Shown piece after piece: positions 21,575-36,659 of a stretch of DNA of 64,000 bases. The stretch is from a virus (taxonomy: Duplodnaviria; Caudoviricetes): positions 64,001 through 128,000 of IMG/VR virus record IMGVR_UViG_2595698649_000001; one strand, written 5' to 3'. Each line of letters begins with the position of its first letter. Within the stretch, counting starts at the first letter, position 1. Position numbers and translations under genes: made by a program. The notes beneath the pieces were generated by a model, which was not told the DNA's origin, searched no databases, and saw only the letters and a program-made list of their open reading frames with translations.

Positions 21575-22119
21575 ATGGAAAAACTAATAACTAAAATTGA
21601 AGACATAAAAGTTAATTTATGTGAAGATGATATTTTAAATTTTTTACAAATACAGAAACGCTGGCCAATACAGTATTCTACTTCACAACCTACAGTACAA
21701 ATCATAAATGAACTAGGTAATTTCTACAACGATTTTTTTGAAAATACTGTAGATGGAATATTCTTAAATTATGATAAGTGGTTATCTTTATACAACTTAG
21801 GATTTACTTCTATTATATCAAATGTTTTAGATTTATCAAAAGAACTAAGAACATTAGAGAAATTAATAATAGAAGAAATAGGTGTAAAAGTTTGTGGTAA
21901 TTTTTACTTTAGTAAACCTGGAAGAAAAGAAAGTTTTGATAAACATACCCATAGTTATGATGTTATAGTAAAACAAATATATGGCAAGTCAAAATGGATT
22001 TTAAACAACCAAGAAATAGACCTATGTCCTAATCAAGTATTATATGTACCTAAAAATACTGAACACGCTGTTATTGAAAAAACAGAAAAAAATTATCATT
22101 AACCTTAAATTTAGCATGA
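21575..22119 (+). CDS. JmjC/cupin-4 type oxygenase (C-terminus frameshifted at A-run 22086-22092)
   Basis: FDKHTHSYDVIVKQIYGKSKW and LYVPKNTEHAV motifs. One extra A gives ..KKLSLTLNLA* with an ATGA overlap into the next gene. Confidence 0.75.
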
Positions 22120-23258
22120 AGAATAAACCTATAGACCCTTTATTAGAAAAACAATGGGAGACCTTTCAACAAGAAAATCCTACACCTTACGAACATATAG
22201 ATACAAACGAACTTAAAGAGCGTTTAATTACTGAACTAGGTTATGTATCTGGTATGACAGTAGAAGAATATACATTATATCAAAAATGGTGTGAAGTTAA
22301 AAACAAGTATCCTGCTCAGACAGTAAACACTTTATTTGGCGAAGAAAGTCAATTAGTAGATTTATCAAAAGATAAACTATTATCTCATGTAAAGAACAAT
22401 ATATGGTCACCTCAGGATCCTATGGATTTTGAGAAGTTACAACCAGAACTAATCTATACAAAAGATAGTCCAGAATTACCACAATTGTGGAACGCAATAA
22501 GAACATTTGCCTCTACAATGAAAAACAATAACAATATAGGTCGTAATCTAAACTTTATAGTAAGAGATAAACCAACAAAGAAATATCTAGGTGTCATTTG
22601 TATATCAAGTGACTTTTTAGATTTAACACCTAGAGATAATTACATAGGTTGGGATAGAGTTAGAAAAACACAAAAGATGATTAATCATACGGCGATAGGT
22701 AGTACGATTGTGCCACTACAACCACTAGGTTATAATTACACAGGTGGTAAGTTACTTGCGTTGATGTGTTTATCAGATAAAGTACAAGAGACATGGAAAA
22801 AAGAATATGGCGATACAATGGTTGGTGTTACAACTACAAGTTTATATGGTAGTTTTAGTCAATATCAGAATTTGAAACACTGGAAGAAAAGAGGTCATAG
22901 TGCAGGTAGTGTATCATACGAAGCAACGAAACCTACTATTCAGATGTTAAGAAAGTGGATTATGGAAAATCACACTAGAAAATACTTTGAATGGTATAGT
23001 GCTACAAAACCTACAGGTCAACCATATAAGAGAGACCACAGAAATAGAAGTCATACATTTGCATATAGTAAACTAGGTATACCAAAAGAGTTAACAAAGT
23101 CAGACCACAGTAGAGGTATCTATTTTTCCGCTAGAAAGCGTATTAAATCATTGATTGACCAAACAAGGACAAACATGGAGACGCTTTACTATGATGACTT
23201 GATACATTTAACATGGGAAGAAACCAAAGAAAAGTATCTAAAACAGGTAGGAAGATAA
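22116..23258 (+). CDS. DUF4338/DruA-like protein, copy 1
   Basis: GRNLNFIV..YLGVI, VPLQPLGYNYTGGKLLA and TTTSLYG..SQY motifs; likely start ATG 22116. Confidence 0.7.
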   Translation: MKNKPIDPLLEKQWETFQQENPTPYEHIDTNELKERLITELGYVSGMTVEEYTLYQKWCEVKNKYPAQTVNTLFGEESQLVDLSKDKLLSHVKNNIWSPQDPMDFEKLQPELIYTKDSPELPQLWNAIRTFASTMKNNNNIGRNLNFIVRDKPTKKYLGVICISSDFLDLTPRDNYIGWDRVRKTQKMINHTAIGSTIVPLQPLGYNYTGGKLLALMCLSDKVQETWKKEYGDTMVGVTTTSLYGSFSQYQNLKHWKKRGHSAGSVSYEATKPTIQMLRKWIMENHTRKYFEWYSATKPTGQPYKRDHRNRSHTFAYSKLGIPKELTKSDHSRGIYFSARKRIKSLIDQTRTNMETLYYDDLIHLTWEETKEKYLKQVGR

Positions 23259-23280
23259 GAACAAAAGTAGAACATAGGCT

Positions 23281-23400
23281 GTGCGATATGACGCACCAGC
23301 AATAAATCGTTGATTTATAAAGGTTCTTTTTTTGTATTTTATGCCAATAATTGTTGACTTTTGGTTAAAATTGGTATAGGATATACAGTATATTATGAAA
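23281..23400 (+). promoter_or_regulatory. Early promoter module copy 1 (dyad + conserved box + TTGACT-N17-TAGGAT)
   Basis: GTGCG-N6-CGCAC dyad, CGTTGAnnTATAAAGGTT box, -35 at 23354, -10 at 23377. Confidence 0.7.
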
Positions 23401-23412
23401 ACGAGGTCAAAT

Positions 23413-25749
23413 ATGAATACTATTTCAAAAGAGCAAAAATCAAATCTTGCTAAATTACTTGCAACAGAAAATCTAAACGTAGAACATAGAAAAGTTAAAA
23501 CAGCACACTTTGTTCCAAAGACTAGAACTTTATGTCTTCCAATATGGGACAATATGTCTAATGACCTTTATGACTTATTATGTGGACACGAAGTTGGTCA
23601 CGCATTATGGACTCCTGCTGATGAGACAAAATTAAACGAAGCAAAAAAGAAACACAATATTCCTCACTCTTACATGAATGTTATTGAAGATATCAGAATT
23701 GATAAGAAGATGAAATTAAAATACCCTGGTCTTAGAAAATCATACTTTAACGGTTACAAAGAATTAGTTGCTAGAGACTTTTTTGGTAAGATTGGTGACG
23801 AAGCAAACAATATGAGATTTATTGATAGACTTAATGTGTTTACAAAATCTGGTCACTTAGAAAATACTATTGAGTTTAATGACCAAGAAAAATCATTTAT
23901 TGAAAAATCAAATCACTTAGAAACTTTTGATGATGTAATTGACCTTGCTAAACAAATCTTTGCTTATAGTAAAGAAGAAAATTACGATAAAGAAAAAGAC
24001 CCTTTATTTCAACAGTTAAAAGAAATAGAACAAGATAAACTTGACCAAGATGAACAAGATAATCAATCAGAGCAATCTGAAAGTGAAGATAGTCAGGATC
24101 CTTCAGATGAAAAGCAATCACAATCTGGTGGTGATGAAGATACAGAAAAAGAAGAAGAAAAAGATAATACAACTTCAGGTGATGACGGTAACAAAACTGA
24201 TGAACCTGAAAACGAGAATAAACAAAAAGTAGATGGTAACAAAGGTCACATGGGTAGTCATAATCCAGAGTATCAACCTGAAAAAATTACTCCTTCAAAT
24301 AGTGACGGTTCATTATCAGATGAAATGTTTAAAGAAGCAATGAAGTCTTTATCAAATATGTCTGAGAATATTAGAGACCGTAGGTATGTTACATTACCAA
24401 GTCTTAGTGAGGAAGATGTTATTATATCTTCAAAACATGTTGCTAAGTTATACAAAGATTATTATACAAAAAAATATTCATCAACTCCTACAATGATGGC
24501 AAATAGTCTTAATAGATTTAAAGAGTGGAAGAAATCACAATCTGGTACAATCTCTTATATGGCAAAAGAGTTTGAAATGAAAAAAGCGGCAGATACTTAC
24601 AAAAAGTCTTTAACAAGTAAAACTGGTATTATCAATATGAATAAAATTCACTCATATAAATTCAATGATGATATATTCAAAAAAATTCAAATAGAACCAG
24701 GTGCCAAAAATCATGGTATGATTATGTTTATAGATTGGTCTGGATCCATGTCTCAAAATATTGATGACACAATCAAGCAAACTTTAAACTTAGTAATGTT
24801 TTGTAAAGCAGTTCAAATACCTTTTAGAGTATTTGCTTTTTCAGATATTACTAGAGCTGCGTTCTATAAAGAAGACCATGATGATTATGGTTATTCAAGT
24901 AGAGCAGCAAGAGATTTAAAAAACAATCCTTTTAAACATAAACACGGTGACTTGTTTATTGAAAATGTAAACTTAATTGAGTGGTTATCAAGTGACCAAA
25001 AAACTCCTGAGTATAATGAGAATATGTTAAACTTATATAGATTTGGTGAGTATCATACTCAATATTATAATCATAGAAGACATTATGACAGTTATGAAGA
25101 ACCAATTGATATGCCTAGTTGTATGAGACTTGGCGGTACTCCTCTGGATCCTGCTATCGTTGCTTCTTTAACTATTGTTAAAAACTTTATTCTTAAACAT
25201 AAGATACAAAAAATGAATACAATCTTTTTAACTGATGGTTGTGGTCATTCAATGTATAATACTGTTACTACTACTGACAAAGGTAATTTAGAATTAGATT
25301 ATGGTAGTGAAAATGCAGATTTAGTTATCAAAAATCCAGTTACTAAAAAAAACTATCCTTATGAAAGTCATAGATTTACAAAATCAACTGCCGTTATGTT
25401 TGATATGTTAAGACAATCTACTGGTACTAATATTGTAGGTTTCTATGTTACAAGTAGAAATAATGCTAGTTACTATGATATATCAAATTTCTTACCAGAA
25501 GGTGCCGGTTATGACGGTGTTGACGCTGTAAGAAAACAAATGCGTAAAGATAAAGTTGGTACTATTGTTGGTACTGGTTATGATGAATTGTTTATCATTC
25601 CAAAAAAGAATTTAAAGATAGTTGACGAAGAAGCGAAGATTAATCCAGATATGTCAATTGCTAAAATGAAAGCAGAATTTGGTAAGACTTTAAAAACTAA
25701 AAAGATATCCAGAGTTTTACTGAATAAATTTGTGGAAAGAGTTGCCTAA
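23413..25749 (+). CDS. Metallopeptidase-like/VWA (CobT-like) protein
   Basis: HEVGH zincin motif, acidic linker, MIDAS DWSGS, GGTPL and FLTDG; GAGG SD before ATG 23413. Confidence 0.8.
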   Translation: MNTISKEQKSNLAKLLATENLNVEHRKVKTAHFVPKTRTLCLPIWDNMSNDLYDLLCGHEVGHALWTPADETKLNEAKKKHNIPHSYMNVIEDIRIDKKMKLKYPGLRKSYFNGYKELVARDFFGKIGDEANNMRFIDRLNVFTKSGHLENTIEFNDQEKSFIEKSNHLETFDDVIDLAKQIFAYSKEENYDKEKDPLFQQLKEIEQDKLDQDEQDNQSEQSESEDSQDPSDEKQSQSGGDEDTEKEEEKDNTTSGDDGNKTDEPENENKQKVDGNKGHMGSHNPEYQPEKITPSNSDGSLSDEMFKEAMKSLSNMSENIRDRRYVTLPSLSEEDVIISSKHVAKLYKDYYTKKYSSTPTMMANSLNRFKEWKKSQSGTISYMAKEFEMKKAADTYKKSLTSKTGIINMNKIHSYKFNDDIFKKIQIEPGAKNHGMIMFIDWSGSMSQNIDDTIKQTLNLVMFCKAVQIPFRVFAFSDITRAAFYKEDHDDYGYSSRAARDLKNNPFKHKHGDLFIENVNLIEWLSSDQKTPEYNENMLNLYRFGEYHTQYYNHRRHYDSYEEPIDMPSCMRLGGTPLDPAIVASLTIVKNFILKHKIQKMNTIFLTDGCGHSMYNTVTTTDKGNLELDYGSENADLVIKNPVTKKNYPYESHRFTKSTAVMFDMLRQSTGTNIVGFYVTSRNNASYYDISNFLPEGAGYDGVDAVRKQMRKDKVGTIVGTGYDELFIIPKKNLKIVDEEAKINPDMSIAKMKAEFGKTLKTKKISRVLLNKFVERVA

Positions 25750-25766
25750 ATGAAAAAAATGACTAA

Positions 25767-25885
25767 GTGCGACATGTTGACACAGCAATTAATTTGGAAA
25801 GCGTTGAAATATAAAGGTTTTTTATTTGAAATAACGCTTGACTTTAACAATAAAGTGTGATAGGATATAGTTATATTATGAAAAA
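25767..25885 (+). promoter_or_regulatory. Early promoter module copy 2
   Basis: GTGCGAcATG..CAGCAAT, CGTTGAaaTATAAAGGTT, TTGACT(25838)-N17-TAGGAT(25861), then TATATTATGAAAA. Confidence 0.7.
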
Positions 25886-25904
25886 AAGTGAAAGGACTAC
25901 AATT

Positions 25905-27077
25905 ATGTTAAACGAGAAACAAAAAAAGTTTGTTGACCTTGCTGTAAAAGAACTTGGTACTGATACAGTAACAAGAAAGCAAGTACAAGAACTTGAAACA
26001 AAATTTAACCTTACTGGTAACAGTTGGTTAGTAAATTCAGGAGATTACAAAGTGGGCAGAGGCGTATATAAATTACCTACTGACGGTGTTGTAAACCCTA
26101 GTAAGAATATCAAACAGAAATTGCCTAAGACTAAAGCAGTTGCTGAGACAGTTACTTTAAAAGAGACTGCTCAAAATACTGAGAGTTTAGTTCCTAATAA
26201 AGAGGCAACTTTCGTATCATTTGGTAATTACAAAGATATTAAGAATATTGTAAAATCTAAAATATTCTATCCTACATTTATTACAGGTCTTTCTGGTAAC
26301 GGTAAGACTTTAGGTGTTACTCAAGCGTGTGCTGAGTTAAAAAGAGAATTAATTAGAGTTAACATAACAGTTGAAACGGACGAAGATGATTTACTTGGTG
26401 GTTTCAGACTAGTTGACGGTGCTACAGTATGGCATGACGGTCCTGTTGTTGACGCTATGAAGCGTGGTGCTCTTCTATTGTTAGATGAGATTGACCTTGC
26501 TTCAAACAAAATTATGTGTTTGCAACCTATCTTAGAAGGTAACGGAGTGTTCCTTAAAAAGATTGGTAAATTTGTTGAACCTGCTGAAGGTTTCAACATT
26601 GTTGCTACTGCCAATACTAAAGGTAAAGGTAGTGAAGACGGAAGATTTATTGGTACTAACATACTCAATGAAGCTTTCTTAGAAAGATTTCCTGTTACTT
26701 TTGAACAAGAGTATCCTCCTGTAAAAGTAGAACAGAAAATTTTAGATAATGTTATGTCCGCTTATGCTTTAAAGGATCCTAAGTTTACTGAGAACCTTGT
26801 TAAATGGGCAGATGTTATTAGAAAAACTTTTTATGATGGCGGTGTTGATGAGATTATTGCTACTAGAAGACTAGTGCATATCATTAATGCTTTTGCTATC
26901 TTTAAGAATAAACTTAAAGCTGTTCAAGTTTGTGTAAACAGATTTGATGACGATACTAAAAACAGTTTCTTAGATTTATATTCTAAAGTTGACGCTGGTG
27001 TTAACATGGAAGATATATCTGGAAATGGGAATGATGTTGACCCAATAAACATGGAAGAGGAAACTCCAAGTGTTTAA
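25905..27077 (+). CDS. cobS: CobS/MoxR-like AAA+ ATPase
   Basis: GLSGNGKT, LLLDEID, ATANTKG and NEAFLERF motifs; AAGGA SD before ATG 25905. Confidence 0.88.
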   Translation: MLNEKQKKFVDLAVKELGTDTVTRKQVQELETKFNLTGNSWLVNSGDYKVGRGVYKLPTDGVVNPSKNIKQKLPKTKAVAETVTLKETAQNTESLVPNKEATFVSFGNYKDIKNIVKSKIFYPTFITGLSGNGKTLGVTQACAELKRELIRVNITVETDEDDLLGGFRLVDGATVWHDGPVVDAMKRGALLLLDEIDLASNKIMCLQPILEGNGVFLKKIGKFVEPAEGFNIVATANTKGKGSEDGRFIGTNILNEAFLERFPVTFEQEYPPVKVEQKILDNVMSAYALKDPKFTENLVKWADVIRKTFYDGGVDEIIATRRLVHIINAFAIFKNKLKAVQVCVNRFDDDTKNSFLDLYSKVDAGVNMEDISGNGNDVDPINMEEETPSV

Positions 27078-27104
27078 TAAAAACATTCATAATGTAGACC
27101 TCGT

Positions 27105-27133
27105 ATCCGTGGGCAGCAATGTCCACGGATTTA
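27105..27133 (+). terminator. GNRA-capped hairpin before the tRNA (terminator or processing signal)
   Basis: ATCCGTGGGCA-GCAA-TGTCCACGGAT followed by TT. Confidence 0.6.
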
Positions 27134-27139
27134 AAACAA

Positions 27140-27213
27140 GCGGGTGTGGTATAGAAGTATTACGCCAGTTTACCAAACTGGAAATGCAGGAGCGTTACCT
27201 GCCATCCGCTCCA
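27140..27213 (+). tRNA. tRNA-Gly with anticodon ACC and non-canonical D/T loops
   Basis: Acceptor GCGGGTG/CATCCGC, U73, encoded CCA; anticodon stem CCAGT/ACTGG with loop TTACCAA; T-stem GCAGG/CCTGC with loop AGCGTTA. Confidence 0.88.
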
Positions 27214-27227
27214 ATAAAGGGTACATT

Positions 27228-27431
27228 ATGTCAATAACTGTTGTAGTAAAAAACAATAATGTTGAAAAAGCAATCAGACAGCTTAAGAAAAAACTTATGA
27301 GAGAAGGTGTAGTGAAAGAGTTGAAGACAAGACAATACTATGAAAAACCATCAGAAAAAAAACTCAGATTAAAAAAGGAAAACATTAAGCGTGTCCTGAA
27401 AAACAAAAAACTAAGGGAAAGGGAACAATAA
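27228..27431 (+). CDS. rpsU: Ribosomal protein bS21
   Basis: ITVVVKNNNVEKAIRQLKKK..EGVVKELKTRQYYEKPSEKK; true start ATG 27228. Confidence 0.92.
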   Translation: MSITVVVKNNNVEKAIRQLKKKLMREGVVKELKTRQYYEKPSEKKLRLKKENIKRVLKNKKLREREQ

Positions 27432-27432
27432 G

Positions 27433-27768
27433 ATGTTAAACTTTATAAAAGATTTCATTAGCGATAGTGAAAAGACGACCAAGACAAACAAGAAAACGAA
27501 AGGAAAAGTTGTTATGGGAAGAGCTAAAATAGCGAATAGCACTAAATTTCTTAACGCCATGTTAAGAGGTGCAAGTGTGTCATGGACTGACGCACAAGAA
27601 AAATTTAACTTAAAGAGACCAAGAGCGGTTGTAGATAAGTTAAGAGAAGAAGGATATTGCGTTTATGCCAATAAATCTTCAAAAGGTACTAGTTACAGAA
27701 TTGGTACACCTTCAAAAGCGATTGTAGCCGCTGGCTTAATGGCGCTTGAGGGACAAGCATACGCATAA
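27433..27768 (+). CDS. Hypothetical basic protein, possible winged-helix DNA binder
   Basis: PRAVVDKLREEGYCVYAN...YRIG pattern; may start at 27514. Confidence 0.5.
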   Translation: MLNFIKDFISDSEKTTKTNKKTKGKVVMGRAKIANSTKFLNAMLRGASVSWTDAQEKFNLKRPRAVVDKLREEGYCVYANKSSKGTSYRIGTPSKAIVAAGLMALEGQAYA

Positions 27769-27773
27769 ATAGT

Positions 27774-27862
27774 TTATCTAGGTAGCTCGTAAATCCTAGG
27801 TAAGTCTTGCCTCTCGTAAATGCAAGACATTGAGTTTGGCAGTATCTCTTTAAAAACTGCCA
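27774..27862 (+). ncRNA. Candidate small RNA: three tandem hairpins with related loops
   Basis: Loops TAGCTCGTAAAT, CTCTCGTAAAT and ATCTCTTTAAAA on different 7-9 bp stems, immediately after late-promoter-like ATAAATA (27765). Confidence 0.5.
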
Positions 27863-27895
27863 CTTGAAATATGAAATTTAATGATTATATAAATA
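27863..27895 (+). promoter_or_regulatory. hsp20 promoters: RpoH-like CTTGAA box and late TATAAATA
   Basis: CTTGAA at 27863 and TATAAATA at 27888. Confidence 0.5.
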
Positions 27896-27939
27896 CTTAC
27901 GAAGCATGCCATAAGGGTGTTTCAATTTATATAAAAAAT

Positions 27940-27970
27940 AACTTTGCTTTAACAAAAGGAGGTTCAAATG
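27940..27970 (+). promoter_or_regulatory. ROSE-like RNA thermometer sequestering the hsp20 SD
   Basis: AACTTT-G(bulge)-CTTT-AACA-AAAG-GAGGTT: the UUGCU motif pairs with the AGGAGG SD. Confidence 0.72.
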
Positions 27971-28414
27971 ACCAATTACAAAGCACTATCTATTTTTAAT
28001 TCACTTAAACCATTTACCGTAGGGTATGATGATTTATTTTCGCATTTTGACGAAATGACAACTCATCTACCTCACTTGACAGCAAACAATTTCCCACCAT
28101 ACAATATTGTTAAACATGACAGTAATAAGTATGATGTTGAAATGGCATTAGCAGGATACAGTAAAGATGATGTTATAGTTGAATACGAAAACAATCAACT
28201 AACAATTAAATCAAAACCATATCCTAAAGACGAAGAAAAGGAAGATACACAAACAATACACAAAGGTATTGCTAAAAGATATTTCTCTAAAGTCTTTACG
28301 ATTGCTGATGATGTAGAAGTCAAAGGTGCAGAACTAAAAGATGGTTTGCTTAAAGTAGGTTTAGAACGAATTGTTCCAGACCACAAGAAAGCAAAAACTT
28401 TTGAAATTAAGTAA
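27968..28414 (+). CDS. hsp20: Small heat-shock protein (IbpA/Hsp20)
   Basis: FPPYNIVK, EMALAGY, HKGIAKRYF and AELKDGLLKV motifs. Confidence 0.95.
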   Translation: MTNYKALSIFNSLKPFTVGYDDLFSHFDEMTTHLPHLTANNFPPYNIVKHDSNKYDVEMALAGYSKDDVIVEYENNQLTIKSKPYPKDEEKEDTQTIHKGIAKRYFSKVFTIADDVEVKGAELKDGLLKVGLERIVPDHKKAKTFEIK

Positions 28415-28420
28415 ATAGAT

Positions 28421-28444
28421 GGGGCGGCTTAATCGCCGCCCTTT
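28421..28444 (+). terminator. Terminator after hsp20
   Basis: GGGCGGC-TTAATC-GCCGCCC-TTT. Confidence 0.8.
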
Positions 28445-28453
28445 AATTATATT

Positions 28454-29034
28454 ATGATATTAGACCTATTTAAAATACCACTATACTCCGTAAATCTAAA
28501 CTTAGATACACAAAAAATTTCTGAGTATTGTTTGTTACATCAAATAGATAATGATGGCAGACAAGTTTCAAACGCAGGTGGTTATCAATCTAAAGACTTA
28601 GTAGGTGAACACCCACAATTAAATGACCTGTTTGTACAAATAGAAGAACATGGTAAAAGTTTTGCAACTAATTTACATTTGGGTAAAGTATTATTAGATA
28701 ACATATGGATTAATATTAACGAATACAAAGACCACAATTTACCACATGTACATAGTGATTGTGCCTTGTCTGGTGTATATTATACTCAGGTACCAATCGT
28801 CCCAAGTGGTGGTGAGATTGCCTTTAAGCATCCATCAATGTATATCAAACAAGAATGGAAGAATCCACAACTTCATACAAGTTATACAAGTAATATTATT
28901 GGCATGCCAGTACACGAAAATTGTTTGTATATTTTTCCATCTTGGTTAGAACATTTGGTAATGCCAAACATGACTAACGAAAAAGAATTTCAATTAGTTT
29001 CAATTTGAAGCTTGACAAAAGAGTAATTTTATGA
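28454..29034 (+). CDS. 2OG-Fe(II) oxygenase-like protein (frameshift at A-run 28980-28984)
   Basis: WININ...HVH...LSGVYY and FPSWLEHLV motifs; one extra A restores the family RISISFN ending. Confidence 0.8.
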
Positions 29035-29040
29035 TAGGAT
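29012..29040 (+). promoter_or_regulatory. Sigma70-type promoter of the replication operon
   Basis: TTGACA-N17-TAGGAT with TG extension. Confidence 0.75.
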
Positions 29041-29047
29041 GTATATT

Positions 29048-29359: not shown

Positions 29360-29371
29360 GGAGAATATATA

Positions 29372-30040
29372 ATGCAATTAAGCGAAAGTACAAAAGAGAT
29401 ACTTAAAAACTTTTCTGAGATTAATCCAAACTTGATGATTAAACCAGGTAAAGAATTAAAGACTATCTCTACAATGAAGAATATTCTTGCTACAGCAAAT
29501 GTAAGTGAAGAATTTCCACAAGATATCGCCATCTATGACTTGAATGAGTTTTTAGGCGTGATGTCATTATTTACAAAACCACAGTTTACCTTTGATGACA
29601 AATCGTTATCTATTGGTGAAGAAGGTACATCAACAAAGTCAAAATATTACTTTGCTGATCCTTCAATCTTAACTGTTCCACAAAAAGATGTAAAAATGCC
29701 TGAAGCAGAGGTACAGTTTACTCTAACTGAAACAGATTTAACTAAAGTGAAGAAAGCGGCGTCAATGTTACAATTGCCAGATATCGCTATTACTTCTAAA
29801 GGTAGTGATATCACATTATCAGCAATTGATAAAAAGAATGATACTGCTAATAACTTTAGTATTAAAGTTGGTGAAACAAACTCTAAATTTGAGTTTCATT
29901 TTAAAACAGAACATTTAAAAATGTTACCTGGTGATTACAATGTATCTATCTCATCAAAGTTAATTAGTAATTTTAAACATAAATCAAAACCAATTCAATA
30001 TTGGATTGCTTTAGAAAACACAAGTAAATTTACTGGCTAA
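29372..30040 (+). CDS. gp45: Sliding clamp
   Basis: LKNFSEIN, IYDLNEFL, YYFADPS and YWIALE motifs. Confidence 0.95.
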   Translation: MQLSESTKEILKNFSEINPNLMIKPGKELKTISTMKNILATANVSEEFPQDIAIYDLNEFLGVMSLFTKPQFTFDDKSLSIGEEGTSTKSKYYFADPSILTVPQKDVKMPEAEVQFTLTETDLTKVKKAASMLQLPDIAITSKGSDITLSAIDKKNDTANNFSIKVGETNSKFEFHFKTEHLKMLPGDYNVSISSKLISNFKHKSKPIQYWIALENTSKFTG

Positions 30041-30058
30041 TTAGATGAGGAATATATT

Positions 30059-31003
30059 ATGGAAAACTTTTTATGGGTTGAACAATATCGCCCTAGTAAG
30101 ATTGATGAATGTATCTTACCTACAGAAATTAAGAATACATTTAAACAGATAGTAAAACAAGGAGAAATACCTAACTTATTATTATCTGGTACAGCAGGTA
30201 CAGGTAAAACTACAATTGCGAAAGCATTATGTAATGAACTTGATTGTGATGTAATGATGATTAATGGTTCAGACGAAGGTCGTTCCATTGACATTGTAAG
30301 AAATCAAATCAAGTCATTTGCCAGTACAGTATCACTAAACGAAAGTAACAAACCTAAAGTAGTAATTGTTGACGAAGCAGACTATATGAATGCTGAGTCC
30401 GTGCAACCTGCTTTAAGAAACTTTATTGAAACTTTTAGTAATAACTGTAGATTTATTTTTACATGTAATTACAAAAACAAAATCATACCGGCAATTCACA
30501 GTAGATGTACTGTTATTAATTTTTCTACACAGAAAAAAGATAAAGAGAAATTAGCAGGTCAGTTTCATAAAAGATTATCCACAATACTAGACCAGGAAAA
30601 CATTGAGTTTGATCCTAAAGTATTGGCAGAATTAATTATAAAATTCTATCCAGACTTTAGAAGAACTATCAATGAATTACAGCGTTATAGTGTAAGTGGT
30701 AGAATAGACACAGGCATTTTAGTTAACATTGCTGAAATGAATATCCAAGGTCTCAACAAAGCGTTATCTAATAAACACTTTGGTGATATGAGAAAATGGG
30801 TAGTTGATAACATTGACAAGGATCCTACTGGTCTATATAAAGAACTATATCAAAACTTCTACGAAGTATTAAAGCCTGAAACAATACCTGCTATGATTAT
30901 ATTATTGGCAGAGTATCAGTACAAGAATGCTTTTGTAGCGGATCCTGAATTGAATATGGTCGCTTGCCTAACTGAAATAATGGGCGAGTGTAAATTCAAA
31001 TGA
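30059..31003 (+). CDS. gp44: Clamp loader large subunit
   Basis: LWVEQYRP, GTGKTT, DEAD and SRC motifs. Confidence 0.96.
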   Translation: MENFLWVEQYRPSKIDECILPTEIKNTFKQIVKQGEIPNLLLSGTAGTGKTTIAKALCNELDCDVMMINGSDEGRSIDIVRNQIKSFASTVSLNESNKPKVVIVDEADYMNAESVQPALRNFIETFSNNCRFIFTCNYKNKIIPAIHSRCTVINFSTQKKDKEKLAGQFHKRLSTILDQENIEFDPKVLAELIIKFYPDFRRTINELQRYSVSGRIDTGILVNIAEMNIQGLNKALSNKHFGDMRKWVVDNIDKDPTGLYKELYQNFYEVLKPETIPAMIILLAEYQYKNAFVADPELNMVACLTEIMGECKFK

Positions 31004-31458
31004 TAGGTTTAGGATACTTAGATTACTGCCAAAAACGAATAGACGAAGGATTATCAACCCAACAAACTAAAACTGGTTTTGGTTTTGAGGATCCTGGACA
31101 AGAGCGTTTTGTTGTTTACTTTGCAAGAACTCACATTATAGACCATCAAACTGGTATTGAAGCTAGAGGTTTATTAAAGATAGGTCGTGCTAAATTTGCA
31201 ACAGCACTACAAAGAAGTCGTAATCAACCTGGTTGTGATTTTCGTATCTATGCTGAAATAGTCTGTGAAACAAATAATCAAATCAAAGAACTAGAAAAGA
31301 AAGTAGAAAAATTTTTGGTTGATAAACATGTTGAACTGACACAAAATCAAAGAGAACTGTACGATATAAAAGATGATGAACTAAGACCTACGATTAAGGC
31401 AATACTTAATCATGTGTATTATTTTGAACCTAAGGAGGTATGTTACTATGGATGCTAG
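31000..31458 (+). CDS. Hypothetical protein with GIY-YIG/T5orf172-like features
   Basis: VYF....LKIGRA...QR...LE...RELY pattern; inserted between gp44 and gp62. Confidence 0.4.
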   Translation: MIGLGYLDYCQKRIDEGLSTQQTKTGFGFEDPGQERFVVYFARTHIIDHQTGIEARGLLKIGRAKFATALQRSRNQPGCDFRIYAEIVCETNNQIKELEKKVEKFLVDKHVELTQNQRELYDIKDDELRPTIKAILNHVYYFEPKEVCYYGC

Positions 31459-32008
31459 AAAGGTATATGATTATTGGCATTGGTCAAATGTCATAAGTGA
31501 AAAAGACAGGCAAGGTATGATTAATAATTTCTTGCATAGGTCTTTAGGTGATGAGAAAGAAGAATTACAAGGACATAACGAACAAGGTAATATGAAAAAT
31601 GCTAAGGTTAAAACAATTAGTCTTGGTAGATTGCCAGAGATTAATCGTTTCTTAGATAGTGCCTATAAAACTAATAATGAAATTTTTGGTTATAATTTAT
31701 GGGAAAGAAATAACTTAGATGTAATGTTATTAAATAGATATACAAAAGATATGAACTATCATTGGCATACGGACGCCAGTAGAGACTTAGCACATGATAT
31801 TAAATTAACTTTTTTAATTAACTTATCAAATGACAATAGTTATGAAGGTGGTCAGTTTCAGATATATAATAATCTAACATTAACTTGTGATTTTAATCCA
31901 GGTGATATGATAATGTTTAAATCAGGATTACATCATAGAGTTACACCTATTACATCTGGTGAAAGAATATCATTAACACACTTTATGGTAGGACCTAGAT
32001 TTATATGA
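31448..32008 (+). CDS. 2OG-Fe(II) oxygenase (PKHD/prolyl-hydroxylase-like)
   Basis: YHWHTD, KLT, YEGG and HRVTPITSGERISL motifs; AGGAGG SD before ATG 31448. Confidence 0.85.
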   Translation: MDARKVYDYWHWSNVISEKDRQGMINNFLHRSLGDEKEELQGHNEQGNMKNAKVKTISLGRLPEINRFLDSAYKTNNEIFGYNLWERNNLDVMLLNRYTKDMNYHWHTDASRDLAHDIKLTFLINLSNDNSYEGGQFQIYNNLTLTCDFNPGDMIMFKSGLHHRVTPITSGERISLTHFMVGPRFI

Positions 32009-32397
32009 ACGAATACAAATTAACAGATTACTTAACATCTATTAACTGGTCTAAAAAGAAGTTAATGGATACAGACGACAAAACATGGGAAAAGAAATAC
32101 CCACCTTTTATTATTAACAAAGGTCTTTCTTATTTTGTAGATACAGTTATGTTTGCAAACGAAATGAATAGACTACACCATGCCTCTAAGCATATGCAAT
32201 TTGCCTTTTTACTAAATACTATTAGACCTCAAAAAAGGTTTAGTAAGTGGATGAAGGCTAGTAAGTTAGCAAACCTAGAGCTGGTTAAGCAATATTACGG
32301 ATATAGCAACAAAAAAGCACAACAAGCACTTAATGTTCTTACTAAAAAACAGGTTGAATATATTAAAGAAAAACTACATAAAGGTGGGAAAAAATGA
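32005..32397 (+). CDS. gp62: Clamp loader small subunit
   Basis: YPPFIINKGLS, ANEMN, KRFSKW and YYGYS motifs. Confidence 0.92.
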   Translation: MNEYKLTDYLTSINWSKKKLMDTDDKTWEKKYPPFIINKGLSYFVDTVMFANEMNRLHHASKHMQFAFLLNTIRPQKRFSKWMKASKLANLELVKQYYGYSNKKAQQALNVLTKKQVEYIKEKLHKGGKK

Positions 32398-32840
32398 GTG
32401 AATTTGTAGAATGGAAACCAGAGAGTATGCTTGAGGTCAAACTCAAAGAGCCAGATGATTTCCTAAAAATAAGAGAAACGCTAACACGAATAGGTGTTGC
32501 GAGTAGAAAAGAACGAAAAATATTCCAGTCTTGTCACATATTACATAAACAAGGTAGATATTTTATTGTACACTTTAAAGAGTTATTTGCTTTAGACGGA
32601 AAGAAAAGCAATATAATGACTAACGATATTGAAAGAAGAAATACCATATCTCAATTGTTGAGTGACTGGGGTTTAATTGAACTGGTTGGTACTATAACTG
32701 AAAAGGCACCACTATCACAAATTAAAGTTTTACCTTACAAGGATAAAAAAGAGTGGATACTAGAACCTAAATATAATATTGGAAAGAAACCAGAACAACA
32801 AGAGGAAAAAAATGAGAGACCAGATAATCAAAGCGCTTAA
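32394..32840 (+). CDS. regA: Translational repressor RegA
   Basis: PDDFLKIRETLTRIG...QSCHILHKQGRYFIVHFKELF. Confidence 0.96.
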   Translation: MSEFVEWKPESMLEVKLKEPDDFLKIRETLTRIGVASRKERKIFQSCHILHKQGRYFIVHFKELFALDGKKSNIMTNDIERRNTISQLLSDWGLIELVGTITEKAPLSQIKVLPYKDKKEWILEPKYNIGKKPEQQEEKNERPDNQSA

Positions 32841-33015
32841 GTCTCATGCTCAAGGTCATATAGACAAGCATGTTGCCAATGTAGAAGTACATATAAGAAA
32901 TGCCACAGGTGTGGCAGAGCACAGCGACCATGTGGAAACAATTGAAAAAGAGTTGAAGCAGATTGCTGAATATGATGACCAATTAGAAATGCTAAATAAG
33001 TATTTTACTAATTAA
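32812..33015 (+). CDS. Conserved small hypothetical protein
   Basis: MRDQIIKAL..G.IDKHVANVEV...GVAEHSD; GAGG SD upstream. Confidence 0.6.
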   Translation: MRDQIIKALKSHAQGHIDKHVANVEVHIRNATGVAEHSDHVETIEKELKQIAEYDDQLEMLNKYFTN

Positions 33016-33019
33016 AAGC

Positions 33020-33048
33020 TTGACTTTTTAAGTCAATTGTGATATAAT
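33020..33048 (+). promoter_or_regulatory. Sigma70-type promoter for gp43 with a dyad over the -35
   Basis: TTGACT-N17-TATAAT; TTGACTT-N3-AAGTCAA inverted repeat. Confidence 0.75.
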
Positions 33049-33060
33049 ATATTATTGTTT

Positions 33061-35538
33061 ATGCGAGATTTTTATACTAACGTTTCACCTTACGGCGATG
33101 AATTACTTGTCCGTGGTTTTCAAAACGGCGAAAGATTTGAAGATAGATTACATTATGTACCTTCAATCTACCACCCTTACAAATCACCACAACCTACAAA
33201 GTATCGTGCTTTAGATGGCACGCCACTAGTTGCTCGTAAATGTAAAACTGTTAAAGAAGCAAGAATGCTTATCAAACGGTATGAAGAGCATCCTAATTTT
33301 ATATACGGGACAGATAGATGGCAATATCAATACATTGCTGACTATTACCAAGGTACAGTAGAATACGACAAAAACAAATTACGAATTTATACAATAGATA
33401 TTGAAGTAGAAAGCGAACATGGATTTCCTAATCCAGATGACGCTGACGAAAAAATGATTTGTATTACAATCAAAGACCAAATTAAAAAATCTATATTAGT
33501 TTGGGGTCTTGCTGATTATACAGTTAAACAAAAGAATGTTAATTATATTAAATGTAAAGATGAAAAAGATTTACTTAAAAACTTCTTAGGTTTCTGGAAA
33601 CAATACACGCCAGATATTCTAACAGGTTGGAATAGTAAATACTTTGATGTACCTTATCTTATTAATAGAACTAAAAAAGTATTAGGCGAACACTCAATTA
33701 AAAGATATTCGCCATGGGATATTGTTGACGAAGACAAAGCATATCACAACGGTAGACAAGTTACATTTTTTAGATTGTTAGGTATTGCACAACTTGACTA
33801 TCTACAACTCTATGCTAAATTTACAATTAAGAACCAAGAACGATATACACTTGACCATATTGCATTTGTAGAACTTGGCGAACAAAAAGATAAAAACCCA
33901 TATGACACTTTTAAAGAATGGTATCAAAATGATATACAATCTTTTATTGATTACAACATTGTTGATGTAGAACTAGTTGATAAACTAGAAGATAGATTAC
34001 AACTAATTGAGCTTGCAATCACTATGTCTTATAATGCAAAAGCAAACTTTGAAGATGTATTCTCACAAGTTAGAATGTGGGACACAATCATATTCAACGA
34101 ATTATTAAAAGATGATATTATTGTACCAATGAGAAAGATTGGTAGTATTCAAGCAAAAGAACTTGTAGGTGCATATGTTAAGGATCCTAAAGTAGGTTTC
34201 CATGATTGGGTTGTATCGTTTGACTTGAACTCACTATATCCACATTTAATTATGCAATACAATATTAGTCCTGAAACTATACTACCAGAACAAAAAGATA
34301 TATTGATTGATGACTTACTTGAAAAGAAAGTTGACACGTCTGACGGTAACTGTATTGCTGCCAATGGCACAATGTATAAACGAGACGTACAAGGTATGTT
34401 GCCACGAATTATACAAAAAGAATATAACGATAGAGTTATTTACAAAAAGAAAATGTTAGAAGCAGAACAAATGTATGCTAACACAAAAGATAAGAAGTAT
34501 GAAAAACTGGCAAGAAAGTTTTATATCATACAACACTCTAAAAAAATATCCTTGAATAGTGCTTATGGTGCAATTGGTAACAAATACTTTAGATATTATG
34601 ACCATAGACAAGCAGAAGCGATTACTATGTCTGGTCAATTAAACATTAAATGGATTGAAAAAAGATTAAACGAATACTTTAACAAGTTGTATAATACAGA
34701 TGATGATTATATCATTGCGTCTGATACAGATAGTGTGTACATTAATATGGCACCACTTGTAAAGATGACTGGTGCAACTGATAAAGATAAAATTGTAAAA
34801 GCATTAGACACATTTTGTAGTGAAAGACTAGAACCATATATTGCAAAAGTATATAAAGAACTTGGCGATTATATGAACGTTAGTGAAAACAAAATGGTTA
34901 TGAAACGAGAGGCGATTGCTGATAGAGGTATCTGGACTGCCAAGAAAAGATATGTTCTAAATGTTCATAATTCTGAGGGTGTTCAATATTCTGAACCTAA
35001 ACTTAAAATTATGGGCATTGAAGCAGTAAAAACTTCAACGCCATTACCTGTTAGAGAAAAGTTAAGAGAGAGTTTTAAAATATTAATGTCTGGTAATGAA
35101 ACACAAATGAAAGACTTTGTAATAAACTTTAAACGAGAGTTTGAACACATGACGCCAGAACAGATTGGTTTCCCTCGTAGTATTAATAACATAGAAAAAT
35201 ATTCTGACACAACATCTATATACAAGAAAGGTACACCAATGCATGTCAAAGGTGCATTGTTATATAATCACTTGTTAAAAACTAATAAAGTGGCACATAA
35301 GTACCAACGAATATATAATGGTGACAAAGGTAAGTTTGTACATCTAAGAAAGAATATCTGGAATGCAAATGTAATTACTTTCATTGCAGATTTGCCAAAA
35401 GAATTTGATATGCACAAAAGTATAGATTATGATTTACAGTTTAATAAATCATTTATGGAACCATTACGATTTATACTTGAAGCAATTAAGTGGCGAGTTG
35501 ACGCAAGCGAAACAAGTAACCTAGAGGATTTCTTTTGA
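33061..35538 (+). CDS. gp43: Family B DNA polymerase
   Basis: Exonuclease DIE, SFDLNSLYP, KISLNSAYG and DTDS motifs; no intein or intron seen. Confidence 0.97.
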   Translation: MRDFYTNVSPYGDELLVRGFQNGERFEDRLHYVPSIYHPYKSPQPTKYRALDGTPLVARKCKTVKEARMLIKRYEEHPNFIYGTDRWQYQYIADYYQGTVEYDKNKLRIYTIDIEVESEHGFPNPDDADEKMICITIKDQIKKSILVWGLADYTVKQKNVNYIKCKDEKDLLKNFLGFWKQYTPDILTGWNSKYFDVPYLINRTKKVLGEHSIKRYSPWDIVDEDKAYHNGRQVTFFRLLGIAQLDYLQLYAKFTIKNQERYTLDHIAFVELGEQKDKNPYDTFKEWYQNDIQSFIDYNIVDVELVDKLEDRLQLIELAITMSYNAKANFEDVFSQVRMWDTIIFNELLKDDIIVPMRKIGSIQAKELVGAYVKDPKVGFHDWVVSFDLNSLYPHLIMQYNISPETILPEQKDILIDDLLEKKVDTSDGNCIAANGTMYKRDVQGMLPRIIQKEYNDRVIYKKKMLEAEQMYANTKDKKYEKLARKFYIIQHSKKISLNSAYGAIGNKYFRYYDHRQAEAITMSGQLNIKWIEKRLNEYFNKLYNTDDDYIIASDTDSVYINMAPLVKMTGATDKDKIVKALDTFCSERLEPYIAKVYKELGDYMNVSENKMVMKREAIADRGIWTAKKRYVLNVHNSEGVQYSEPKLKIMGIEAVKTSTPLPVREKLRESFKILMSGNETQMKDFVINFKREFEHMTPEQIGFPRSINNIEKYSDTTSIYKKGTPMHVKGALLYNHLLKTNKVAHKYQRIYNGDKGKFVHLRKNIWNANVITFIADLPKEFDMHKSIDYDLQFNKSFMEPLRFILEAIKWRVDASETSNLEDFF

Positions 35539-36659
35539 TATTAAATAACCAAGACGCTACATGGGCAATGAATTACTTTATAGAATACTTTGGTCAATAT
35601 GAAAGAATAGACCAATATCTTAAAGAACAAAAATTAGAACAAGTTAAAAATTTTCCATTTCAATTACCTGGCATGGCAGACGAAGATGAGTTTTTTGCTA
35701 ACTTTGAAATATCTCCTGAAGATATGAAATTTAGCGTGACTATACCTAATGGTCAAATATTTGATAGAATGTTAAACAAAACATCTAGTCATACTAACAT
35801 GTCAAGTATACCTGGTAAGTCAATTAGATTGTTAGTTACAGAAACAACTACAAATACTATTGTAGGTTTTATTAGACTTGGTAGTCCTGTGATTAATAGT
35901 AAACCACGAAATGTTTATCTTGGTAGACCTTTACAAACTACAGACATGGAAGAAATGGGTAGATTTAACAATAGTGCCATTATGGGATTTGTAATTGTAC
36001 CTACACAACCATTTGGTTATAATTATCTTGGTGGTAAACTATTAGCGGCGATATGCTGTAGTCATCATGTGAGAGATATACTAAATAAGAAATATAATAC
36101 TAACATATGTTTATTTGAAACAACAAGTTTATATGGTAGTAGTAAATCATCAAGTCAGTATGATGGTATGAAACCTTATTTAAGATTTAAAGGTTTGACA
36201 GATAGTCACTTCTTGCCATTATTACATGGCGAAGCATTTAAGAAAATGAATGCCTGGTTTACAGAAAGAAACGGAGAACCTTTAGTTGACGCTGACGCAA
36301 GTAGTAGAAAACTAAAAATACAAACAAAGATGGTATCTATAATCAAGGAATCCTTGAAACAATATGACGCCAATCTATATGATAAGTTTAGTAAGTTTGT
36401 AAATAAAACTAGAGACTTAACTGAACAGAAAAGATTTTACATGTCTGATTACGGATATGAAAATGTGCCACAATATCTTAAACGTGAGACAGATGAATTA
36501 AAACGTGGTATACACTACGATAAGTTTACATTAGAGAATACAATCAAATGGTGGCAAAAACTTGCTACTAAACGATTTAATAAACTTAAACAAAACAATA
36601 ATATAAGAAATGATTTAGAGATATGGCACGAAGACGCCAATATACAAATTATAAGATAA
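35535..36659 (+). CDS. DUF4338/DruA-like protein, copy 2
   Basis: GKSIRLLV..IVGFIRLGSP, VPTQPFGYNYLGGKLLA and ETTSLYG..SQY motifs. Confidence 0.7.
   Translation: MILNNQDATWAMNYFIEYFGQYERIDQYLKEQKLEQVKNFPFQLPGMADEDEFFANFEISPEDMKFSVTIPNGQIFDRMLNKTSSHTNMSSIPGKSIRLLVTETTTNTIVGFIRLGSPVINSKPRNVYLGRPLQTTDMEEMGRFNNSAIMGFVIVPTQPFGYNYLGGKLLAAICCSHHVRDILNKKYNTNICLFETTSLYGSSKSSSQYDGMKPYLRFKGLTDSHFLPLLHGEAFKKMNAWFTERNGEPLVDADASSRKLKIQTKMVSIIKESLKQYDANLYDKFSKFVNKTRDLTEQKRFYMSDYGYENVPQYLKRETDELKRGIHYDKFTLENTIKWWQKLATKRFNKLKQNNNIRNDLEIWHEDANIQIIR

Follow-up and report, generated by a model that had tools for sequence, protein, structure and literature searches.

In the Mom system of phage Mu (family PF25680, structure 8bv8), a charged tRNA serves as the donor for a DNA modification. 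According to the available part of the paper describing it (PMC13219725, Nat Commun 2026), Mom is a GNAT which moves glycine from Gly-tRNAGly onto the N6-adenine of double-stranded DNA, takes all tRNAGly isoacceptors, probably reading the acceptor end only, and has the essential residues R111, S124, D149 and R151 together with an HTH-like insertion. The same text places FemX within the GNAT superfamily and gives Gly-tRNAGly as the substrate of GNAT toxins such as TacT. The original prediction made from the present DNA had named glycyl-tRNAGly as the donor of Mom, and this is correct. Staphylococcal Fem transferases draw on a tRNAGly in which TGC or TGT replaces TTC in the T-loop and which binds EF-Tu poorly, as stated in the accessible portion of PMC7826273. 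DUF4338, the domain of DruA (PF14236), is described in the section of PMC10853773 consulted as a GNAT domain that is fused to DndF in some proteins. DruA gives its name to a widespread defence system, Druantia, and no function was assigned to it in the literature searched; the available text of a YprA/Druantia preprint (10.1101/2025.09.15.676423) held nothing on the DruA fold.

The window analyzed here, a stretch of 64,000 nucleotides, comes from a marine myophage that is T4-like and of the SAR11-phage type, with a genome of 147,284 bases. It encodes two DUF4338 proteins, termed copy 1 and copy 2, and the features discussed are collected in Table 1.

Table 1. Coordinates of the DUF4338 genes, the tRNA gene and a neighboring candidate gene within the window.
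Feature	Position	Strand	Remarks
Candidate glycosyltransferase ORF, 335 aa	20548..21555	+	One gene between this ORF and copy 1
Copy 1, DUF4338/DruA-family protein, predicted GNAT fold	22116..23258	+	380 aa from ATG at 22116; longer ORF from 22044
tRNA-Gly(ACC), encoded CCA	27140..27213	+	ARAGORN, which also drew the cloverleaf; Rfam tRNA RF00005, 49.5 bits against a gathering threshold of 29
Copy 2, DUF4338/DruA-family protein, predicted GNAT fold	35535..36659	+	374 aa; begins at a TTG that overlaps the stop codon of the DNA polymerase gene

The two copies aligned in BLASTP over 200 residues at 34% identity (E 1e-19); the motifs which the original prediction had quoted in calling them paralogs lie inside the aligned region. 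Both belong to the Pfam DruA family, copy 1 at 65.4 bits (6.2e-18) and copy 2 at 40.9 bits (1.8e-10) with a cut-off of 27; both were also recognized by the PADLOC DruA models (4.9e-14 and 3.5e-8, respectively) and matched PHROG 19197, copy 2 at 9.8e-197. In the longer ORF, alignment with homologues of copy 1 sets in at residue 23-34, and the preceding ORF stops at 22102, so that the start originally chosen for copy 1 is likelier than the one at 22044. The TTG start of copy 2 and the TGA of the DNA polymerase gene share the letters TTGA, GAGGA is found 7 nt 5' of the start, and uvsX begins downstream at 36883; copy 2 is translationally coupled to the polymerase gene and sits before uvsX, as had been proposed. 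An ortholog of copy 1 (55.8% identity) is present in Pelagibacter phage Mosig, which has copy 1 alone, and full-length orthologs of copy 2 (41-51% identity) were found in 28 phage records, mostly of Synechococcus T4-like phages, which have copy 2 alone. The idea of a self-contained DUF4338 pair therefore had to be given up as an obligate arrangement. Relatives of copy 2 in public metagenome collections numbered 6998 proteins at E up to 0.001, and the phage DUF4338 forms make up two large subfamilies of their own. Catalytic-looking motifs were invariant across alignments of 15 and 25 sequences, which suggests that enzymatic activity has been retained. The conserved stretches include GGK, TTSLYG and SQY, and in copy 2 the invariant residues include R125, Q158, K168, T196-S198 and Y209. 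Other domains carried by 34 long DruA-domain representatives were ParB_N (7), UDG (1), NUMOD3 (1) and LAGLIDADG (1).

The copies are surrounded by T4-type replication and recombination genes, CobS/CobT-like genes, S21 and Hsp20, and DUF4338 phage genes occupy fixed places in the replication module. No gene of DruE size was present among the neighbors of copy 1 or copy 2, in agreement with the earlier statement that a DruE-type helicase was not seen. The likeness to Druantia type I is one of family scores, by Pfam and PADLOC; a surrounding Druantia operon (DruA with DruB-DruE, including the large DruE helicase) was not found at either copy. The largest ORF of the genome (2002 aa, DUF4815) lies outside the window. 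With respect to the gene near copy 1 that had been called BGT-like, no match was obtained in Pfam, PHROG or PADLOC; its neighbors in ESM-Atlas were viral clusters named glycosyltransferase (0.98), one cluster at 0.96 being 100% PF09198 T4-Gluco-transf. These neighbors uphold the gene as a candidate, and the glycosyltransferase identity is a possible lead and not a family membership. A promoter scan gave 106 matches compared with 93 in shuffled sequence (sd 9.3), which is no excess.

AF2 models of copy 1 (pLDDT 82.9) and copy 2 (pLDDT 78.8) were used for structural comparison. Both paralogs have a predicted GNAT fold, as had been anticipated from their motifs, and in both models extra N- and C-terminal domains lie outside the GNAT core. 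The top Foldseek rows were nearly all GNATs, the best E value being 3.6e-3 with none at 0.001, while in VIA-align all 50 listed matches of each copy were GNATs, with a top Z of 9.7 for copy 2 (SpeG, 148 residues) and of 8.0 for copy 1 (131-138 residues). The best structural matches included SpeG, RimI and AAC(6'). Mom (8bv8_A) aligned with copy 2 at Z 9.5 and rmsd 4.6 over 177 residues, the longest alignment among the 50 listed matches, and with copy 1 at Z 7.9 and rmsd 3.4 over 140 residues; for both copies it ties, within 1 Z unit, with ordinary SpeG-type acetyltransferases as the best match. Neither copy matched PF25680 at E up to 1, hhalign against Mom gave a probability of 0.2% (a 15-sequence profile against Mu Mom, and 85 against 22 sequences), and a sequence search of PDB chains with both paralogs returned chance-level rows only. 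A specific Mom-type kinship, as originally suggested, was therefore not borne out. In the loop between β4 and α3, copy 2 has Q158-P-F-G161-Y-N and copy 1 has Q-P-L-G-Y-N, ending in N and not in G or A. The loop is close to Q/R-x-x-G-x-G/A, the CoA pyrophosphate-binding motif of GNATs, and this likeness would fit an acyl-CoA donor.

The copies thus share with Mom a phage-encoded GNAT fold with added elements, in the top structural tie, and an association with glycine tRNA, which is the donor of Mom and the genetic partner of the present genes; they differ in having no detectable sequence or profile similarity to it. Mom is a protein of 241 aa, expressed as a late gene under Com and using host tRNA only, whereas the copies are predicted enzymes of 374-380 aa, encoded among replication genes and often accompanied by their own tRNA-Gly or a mimic of it. 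The Fem group (FmhB, FemA, FemB, FemX) resembles the present case in its special tRNAGly, the T-loop of which is changed in the same kind of way as in the phage tRNA-Gly family. The Fem acceptor, in contrast, is a peptidoglycan precursor, and the staphylococcal non-proteogenic tRNAGly genes are not known to adjoin the fem genes. Fem enzymes were absent among the 50 listed structural matches of either copy, which speaks neither for nor against a relation. The GNAT toxins TacT and AtaT recognize Gly-tRNAGly, and KacT was among the weak Foldseek rows of the copies. Such toxins are small, of about 170 aa, use acetyl-CoA and are paired with a protein antitoxin, whereas no protein-antitoxin partner was seen beside the copies.

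The tRNA-Gly(ACC), described as atypical in the original prediction, is a real tRNA by both ARAGORN and Rfam and was the sole tRNA detected by ARAGORN in the genome. A hairpin that follows the CobS gene precedes it, and the S21 gene comes directly after it. In canonical elongator tRNAs the D-loop carries G18-G19 and the T-loop T54-Psi55-C56 (TTC); the phage tRNA departs from both, with a D-loop of AGAAGUA, which has no GG, and a T-loop of AGCGUUA. A covariance model recovered 36 tRNA-Gly-type RNAs from the window and 80 CobS-anchored loci, all of which have G1-C72, C2-G71, G3-C70, U73, an encoded CCA, a D-loop lacking GG and a T-loop of the form xGCGxxx or GGCAGUA. The two tRNA-Thr from the same CobS-anchored set are canonical, as are 12 of 12 distinct tRNA-Gly from six alphaproteobacterial genomes, five of them of 1.2 Mb; no Pelagibacter was matched in an S21-protein search of genome contigs. 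A 99%-complete relative had appeared to lack the odd tRNA-Gly, and this was ruled out by the covariance model. In BLASTN searches, the window's tRNA had no match in the phage collection, and a related GCC tRNA showed generic tRNA similarity only. An ACC anticodon pairs by the standard rules mainly with GGU, and as GGU makes up 72.6% of the genome's glycine codons, translation offers a straightforward reason for it. The region 22000-27500 was covered by contigs from four marine metatranscriptome runs of two studies, contigs of a kind (RNA-library) that cannot prove transcription or RNA ends.

Co-occurrence of DUF4338 genes with tRNA-Gly had been set as a test in the original prediction, and the outcome was positive. 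Phage DUF4338 genes are genetically linked to tRNA-Gly-type RNAs, and both paralog families are linked to tRNA-Gly or to mimics of it. Sufficient flanking sequence on either side was available for 21 CobS loci; 12 of these carried copy 1 together with the tRNA, 9 carried neither, and none carried just one, so that tRNA-Gly was found in 0/9 of the loci lacking copy 1. Close relatives are included in the locus sets, so the counts do not represent independent events; on the CobS tree, joint presence of copy 1 and the tRNA needs only 2 changes, or about two independent events. In loci anchored on copy 1, a tRNA-Gly mimic of 61-70 nt was found in 27 of 76, always on the same strand and 3-763 nt 3' of the stop codon, and the other 49 had no adjoining mimic. 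The class of 63-65 nt shows compensatory changes in 9 of its 18 predicted pairs, and it cannot decode, since just 4 nt form the loop where an anticodon would be. G1-C72, C2-G71, G3-C70, U73, CCA and a C-rich loop are shared by several mimic classes of different build. Reciprocally, a copy-1-type gene was directly upstream in 78/78 loci with the mimic pattern and at least 400 nt of upstream sequence, at a median gap of 48 nt.

The mimics were detected by a regex scan, and covariance model R1 recovers few of the short ones. For mimics from 5 loci, no Rfam family matched at E up to 1, and matches of a loose pattern over 401 genomes were as frequent as those of its reversed control. A DruA-domain gene was present in 8 of the 10 longest new contigs with a GGCAGUA-type tRNA-Gly, which are fragments 7-23% complete. 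For 80 tRNA-Gly genes of the GGCAGUA type, copy 2 lay within 2 kb in only 4 cases and CobS in 8, since copy 1 sits further off. No tRNA-Gly or mimic was found within about 1.5 kb in 30 alphaproteobacterial DruA-domain loci. With respect to copy 2, ARAGORN detected 23 tRNAs in 80 anchored loci and 20 of these were tRNA-Gly. A tRNA-Gly or tRNA-Gly-like RNA was present in 23 of the loci, upstream of the gene in some and downstream in others, and within 150 nt of it, on either side, in 11; the remaining 57 had no tRNA-Gly in up to 6 kb on each side. Among named cyanophages with copy 2, only 1 of 6 had a tRNA-Gly nearby.

The reading that we tentatively favor, giving it a little under an even chance, is that the copies are aminoacyl-tRNA-dependent transferases, like Mom and Fem, with glycyl-tRNA as donor. 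Host glycyl-tRNA synthetase would charge a tRNA-Gly, including the phage tRNA-Gly(ACC) in this genome, and in many relatives it would instead charge a dedicated, non-decoding mimic encoded beside the enzyme gene. The GNAT domain would then pass the glycyl group to an acceptor. With their elbow altered or D-arm missing, these RNAs would stay out of translation and so provide a private pool of activated glycine for the enzyme. In this reading the RNA would be glycylated and would serve as the donor. Phage DNA is the leading candidate for the acceptor, because both genes belong to the replication module and because, in related proteins, the domain is joined to others that bind DNA or act on it, an assignment that we regard as possible but rather doubtful. 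An anti-restriction motive is weakened by the near-absence of restriction-modification in SAR11, such a system having been noted in only one of more than 100 genomes in the accessible text of a pelagimyophage survey (PMC7029224).

The CoA-like loop also fits enzymes of another kind. GNATs using acetyl- or acyl-CoA could act on tRNA, either by TacT-like N-acylation of Gly-tRNAGly or with the linked RNA as a decoy, antidote or regulator, in which case the RNA is not a donor but a substrate or partner. The TacT-type toxins, which take Gly-tRNAGly (PMC13219725, available part), offer a precedent, the tight gene-RNA cassette (78/78) is reminiscent of toxins to which an RNA partner is linked, and the altered elbow could render the phage tRNAs resistant to the enzyme. 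We nevertheless consider this unlikely. A block of Gly-tRNAGly would stop phage translation too, and the single tRNA-Gly(ACC) of this genome reads mainly GGU; the copies, with their extra terminal domains, are far from the size of the GNAT toxins; and the DNA-related fusions of the DruA domain would be left unexplained. Also improbable in our view is that the copies are ordinary CoA-dependent acetyltransferases of a protein, a small molecule or DNA, with tRNAs that serve GGU-rich translation and mimics that are cis-acting mRNA 3'-end or processing elements in a hot spot of small genes. The codon usage, the position of the tRNA directly before S21, the SpeG, RimI and AAC(6') matches and the many DUF4338 loci without any tRNA-Gly would all be accommodated, and the mimics, as expected of a 3' element, always come after the gene and share its strand. 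However, a processing element has no need of the glycine identity set kept by several mimic classes, and the tRNAs around copy 2 are tRNA-Gly in 20 of 23 cases, on either side of the gene. Moreover, in this phage group tRNA-Thr has the canonical form, whereas no tRNA-Gly-type RNA recovered by the model does, and the CobS loci without copy 1 have no tRNA-Gly (0/9).

The original prediction had offered a Druantia decoy as one further alternative. In this view the copies, taken over from DruA, would act as decoys for the host's Druantia type I defence or would inhibit it. Phages copy defence components and both copies are in the DruA family, but no test run gave this idea support, and the invariance of the catalytic-looking motifs, the very large number of relatives and the fixed places of the genes in the replication module make it highly improbable; nothing that came up in passing connects the SAR11-type host with Druantia. 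The aminoacyl-tRNA-dependent transferase reading can be extended further. DUF4338/DruA would then be a second and far larger family of aminoacyl-tRNA-dependent GNATs modifying nucleic acids, and marine and freshwater T4-like phages would supply private, non-decoding glycine carriers (elbow-altered tRNA-Gly and D-arm-reduced mimics of 61-70 nt) and glycylate their own DNA during replication. By further extension, DruA of Druantia type I would mark DNA with a group derived from an amino acid. This broader proposal is unlikely as it stands.

The genetic link between phage DUF4338 genes and tRNA-Gly is new here; no report of a link between DUF4338 and tRNA was found in the literature searched. The conserved gene-RNA cassette turns a domain whose name is that of a widespread defence system into the subject of a concrete and cheaply testable hypothesis, glycyl transfer from a dedicated tRNA-like carrier. 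If this is true, the principle established for Mom would extend from a small family to a large one. The analysis also brought to light tRNA-Gly-type RNAs which escape standard tRNA finders: ARAGORN on the CobS loci and the Rfam tRNA model on five long contigs overlooked most of the odd tRNA-Gly genes. With tRNAscan-SE, the pelagimyophage survey detected tRNA genes in no more than 18 of 31 genomes of these phages, according to the part of PMC7029224 available, and in one published pelagimyophage record such a tRNA-Gly-type RNA is labeled as a hypothetical protein.

Two ORFs of the window, copy 1 and copy 2, had been described as paralogs from sequence alone, and this was confirmed: they share 34% identity across 200 residues (E 1e-19), and the Pfam DruA/DUF4338, PHROG 19197 and PADLOC DruA models all match both. 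No third DruA/DUF4338 copy was found in the genome (147,284 bases). Judged by copy 1, Pelagibacter phage Mosig EXVC030M is its closest named relative. Homologues of copy 1 agree better with a start at 22116 than with the earliest ATG, at 22044; in copy 2 the start codon is a TTG overlapping the TGA of the polymerase gene, with GAGGA 7 nt upstream. The window is AT-rich (32.6% G+C), has almost all genes on the + strand and holds T4-type genes in a T4-like order: uvsW, gp55, gp47, gp46, CobT-like, CobS-like, ribosomal protein S21, Hsp20, gp45, gp44, gp62, regA, gp43, uvsX and gp41.

Features of the window, of the phage genome and of related viral loci
Feature	Position	Details
Copy 1	window 22116-23258 (+)	380 aa
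Copy 2	window 35535-36659 (+)	374 aa
tRNA-Gly(ACC)	window 27140-27213 (+)	Glycine identity set (G1-C72, C2-G pair, U73, C35, C36; listed in PMC7826273) and encoded CCA
S21 ORF	window 27144-27431	95 aa; GTG start; overlaps tRNA-Gly(ACC)
Three 2OG-Fe(II) oxygenase genes and one JmjC/cupin gene	window 18123-18842, 21575-22102, 28454-29008, 31412-32008	Dispersed in replication module
152-aa ORF	window 31000-31458	Between gp44 and oxygenase gene; weak T5orf172 match (E 7.6e-4)
Hypothetical CDS Mosig_000011	MT647606.1 7779-7852 (locus L085:16802-16875)	Annotated over RNA homologous to tRNA-Gly(ACC)
Tandem mimics	viral locus L206:3736-3879	Two differing 69-nt tRNA-Gly mimics immediately 3' of DUF4338 gene
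tRNA cluster	viral locus L240:12041-15840	17 tRNA genes, none tRNA-Gly, ~6-10 kb 3' of copy-1 relative
Largest ORF of genome	G000:C1:37918-43923, outside window	2002 aa; DUF4815

AlphaFold2 models were made from small alignments and judged usable (copy 1, pLDDT 82.9, pTM 0.79; copy 2, pLDDT 78.8, pTM 0.75). A Foldseek search of the PDB produced nothing at E 0.001 or lower. Nearly all of the highest-ranked entries were GNAT acetyltransferases, led by 2ae6_A (3.6e-3), with the DNA modifier Mom (8bv8_B) ranking 29 (E 1.2e-2). On VIA-align rescoring the matches listed were GNATs only. SpeG came top for copy 2 (Z 9.7, rmsd 3.4, 148 aligned) and Mom 8bv8_A scored Z 9.5 (rmsd 4.6) over 177 residues, the longest alignment among the matches listed; for copy 1 the top Z was 8.0 and that of Mom 7.9 (rmsd 3.4, 140 aligned). 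In these predicted models, Mom therefore ties with the best other GNATs for both copies. Neither copy matched the Mom family PF25680 at E up to 1, and the hhalign probability of a relation to Mom was 0.2%, whether a 15-sequence profile was aligned with Mu Mom or 85 sequences with 22. Given the fold matches and the absent sequence link, both proteins are GNAT-fold members of the DruA family, outside the Mom family. DUF4338 is already termed a GNAT domain in PMC10853773, the S-SCSM2R ortholog of copy 2 is annotated 'methylcarbamoylase mom' from predicted structure in a cyanophage paper (PMC12801897), and the Phold preprint notes a DruA-like CDS in six Synechococcus phages.

The original prediction was of a Mom-like pair that modifies DNA using tRNA-Gly. 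It was partly supported: its GNAT fold, Mom precedent and tRNA-Gly link stood, but the support did not extend to a specific relation to Mom, to an obligate pairing or to DNA as the target. The statement that Mom uses glycyl-tRNAGly as donor was correct: according to Silva et al. (PMC13219725), Mom moves glycine from Gly-tRNAGly onto the N6-adenine of dsDNA, whereupon the group rearranges; every tRNAGly isoacceptor works, and the authors suspect that the acceptor end alone is read.

The tRNA-Gly(ACC) of the window, the sole tRNA that ARAGORN detects in the genome, has a D-loop (AGAAGUA) without GG and the T-loop AGCGUUA, where tRNA T-loops are usually UUCGAAU-like. A covariance model built from seven odd tRNA-Gly genes and searched against the window and 80 CobS-anchored viral loci (the best 80 of a larger list) recovered 36 tRNA-Gly-type matches and two tRNA-Thr. 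All 36, with anticodons ACC, GCC or UCC, lacked the D-loop GG and had a T-loop of (A/U)GCG... or GGCAGUA type; both tRNA-Thr were canonical, as were all 12 distinct tRNA-Gly of six alphaproteobacterial genomes taken as host-type comparison, some loci of which are 29-35% G+C. Set beside a host-like GCC tRNA, one of the phage GCC forms shows two main changes, D-loop GG to AG and T-loop TTC to TGC, at sites that are partners in the 18-55 tertiary contact. Staphylococcal cell-wall tRNAGly, the donors of Fem transferases, likewise have TGC or TGT where TTC is usual, and their binding to EF-Tu is weak (PMC7826273). Many of the odd tRNA-Gly genes were overlooked by ARAGORN and Rfam; of 31 pelagimyophage genomes surveyed with tRNAscan-SE, only 18 are reported to have tRNAs (PMC7029224). 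In Mosig, the covariance model reads the RNA under the hypothetical CDS, which lies between Hsp20 and gp45, as a tRNA-Gly(ACC) whose T-loop is GGCAGUA.

Of the CobS-anchored loci, 21 extended at least 5.3 kb upstream and at least 3.5 kb downstream; 12 of these had both copy 1 and a tRNA-Gly-type gene, nine had neither and none had just one. Only two changes explain this joint trait on the CobS tree (27 rows), so that the association, amounting to about two independent events, is suggestive only. In a second sample, whose anchors were relatives of copy 1 (52-83% identity) and in which loci with at least 90 nt downstream were counted, 27 of 76 loci carried a 61-70-nt RNA, here termed a mimic, that starts GCGG and ends CCGC-U-CCA, on the same strand and 3-763 nt past the stop codon; 25 of the 27 had a mimic within 131 nt of it, and one shares the window's gene order. 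The 63-65-nt class (14 distinct members) is predicted to fold as a small cloverleaf with a 5-bp acceptor stem, a 3-bp D-arm remnant, a 5-bp hairpin and a 5-bp T-stem, with compensatory changes at 9 of 18 pairs. As its hairpin loop has 4 nt (CCCC or CCCA), this class is predicted to be unable to decode. The 67-70-nt classes have UGCGAAU-type T-loops, and an Rfam search of five loci at E up to 1 gave no family for the mimics.

When the 63-nt-class pattern was run over viral contigs, at least 120 stretches matched, and of 80 fetched, each of the 78 that extended at least 400 nt upstream was immediately preceded, on the same strand, by a copy-1-type gene (median gap 48 nt). A GGCAGUA-type tRNA pattern also matched at least 120 stretches; leaving out seven contigs with copy 1 already known and five of 10-13 kb, we took the ten longest contigs new to the locus sets (11-42 kb, 7-23% complete), and a DruA-domain gene was present on eight. 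Many mimic-less copy-1 loci (among L201-L270) have, about 0-170 nt past the DUF4338 stop, a near-consensus TTGACA-17-TATAAT promoter and a conserved hairpin, CTTGC...GCAAG, as well as a conserved small gene whose product starts M(S/T)KLSAK..K(M/I)LN...GYNTF.

Around copy 2, ARAGORN found 23 tRNAs in 80 anchored loci (the best 80 of a larger list), 20 being tRNA-Gly (UCC or ACC) and the rest Arg, Thr and one unassigned. A tRNA-Gly or tRNA-Gly-like RNA was present in 23 of these loci, in canonical, TGC-type and GGCAGUA-type forms and as one 69-nt mimic; in 11 it lay within 150 nt of the gene, eight downstream and three upstream. The predicted co-occurrence of DUF4338 genes with tRNA-Gly, or with mimics of it, was seen for both paralog families, with counts that are not independent, since each set of loci took the best 80 from a longer match list and close relatives are among them. 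No such RNA was seen in the DNA fetched for 49 of 76 copy-1 and 57 of 80 copy-2 loci. Among named cyanophages with copy 2, one of six, S-SSM7, had a tRNA-Gly within 4-6 kb, of canonical form, and none of 30 bacterial DruA-domain loci (from 16 of 401 alphaproteobacterial genomes, the 16 including neither of the two flagged as unpublished) had tRNA-Gly or a mimic within ~1.5 kb. Relative to the literature searched, this evidence linking enzyme and tRNA is new.

That the copies are Mom/Fem-like glycyl-tRNA-dependent transferases is our leading reading, held at a little short of an even chance. Against it, the beta4-alpha3 loop, read from sequence as Q-P-x-G-Y-N, is near the GNAT CoA-binding motif. 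A CoA-dependent GNAT acting on, or controlled by, the tRNA-like RNA is unlikely. Glycine codons are 72.6% GGU, so that an ACC anticodon would aid translation, and the S21 gene starts just 3' of tRNA-Gly(ACC), most likely at ATG 27228 right behind its CCA, because the PHROG S21 match is confined to residues 29-95 of the ORF. That the enzymes are ordinary acetyltransferases, and that translational or cis-acting effects account for the tRNAs around their genes, is similarly improbable. Restriction systems are described as rare in SAR11 (PMC7029224), which also speaks against the leading reading; a Druantia decoy, for all the matches to DruA models, is very improbable.

Within glycyl-tRNA-dependent transfer, DNA would be the favoured acceptor, as suggested by fused domains, location and a neighbouring gene, and such transfer onto DNA is in absolute terms doubtful rather than probable. 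Of 34 long DruA-domain representatives, seven have an N-terminal ParB_N domain, one each a UDG-superfamily, NUMOD3, LAGLIDADG_3 or DUF3102 domain, and 23 DruA only. The phage DUF4338 genes occupy fixed sites of the replication module, with copy 2 behind gp43 in the window; in cyanophages, gp44 and gp62 flank it. A possible glycosyltransferase gene sits one gene from copy 1.

The JmjC/cupin gene lies directly 5' of copy 1, where Mosig and the viral locus L273 have a peptide deformylase gene instead. The 152-aa ORF may be a homing-endonuclease-like insertion, and the 2002-aa ORF is presumably structural.
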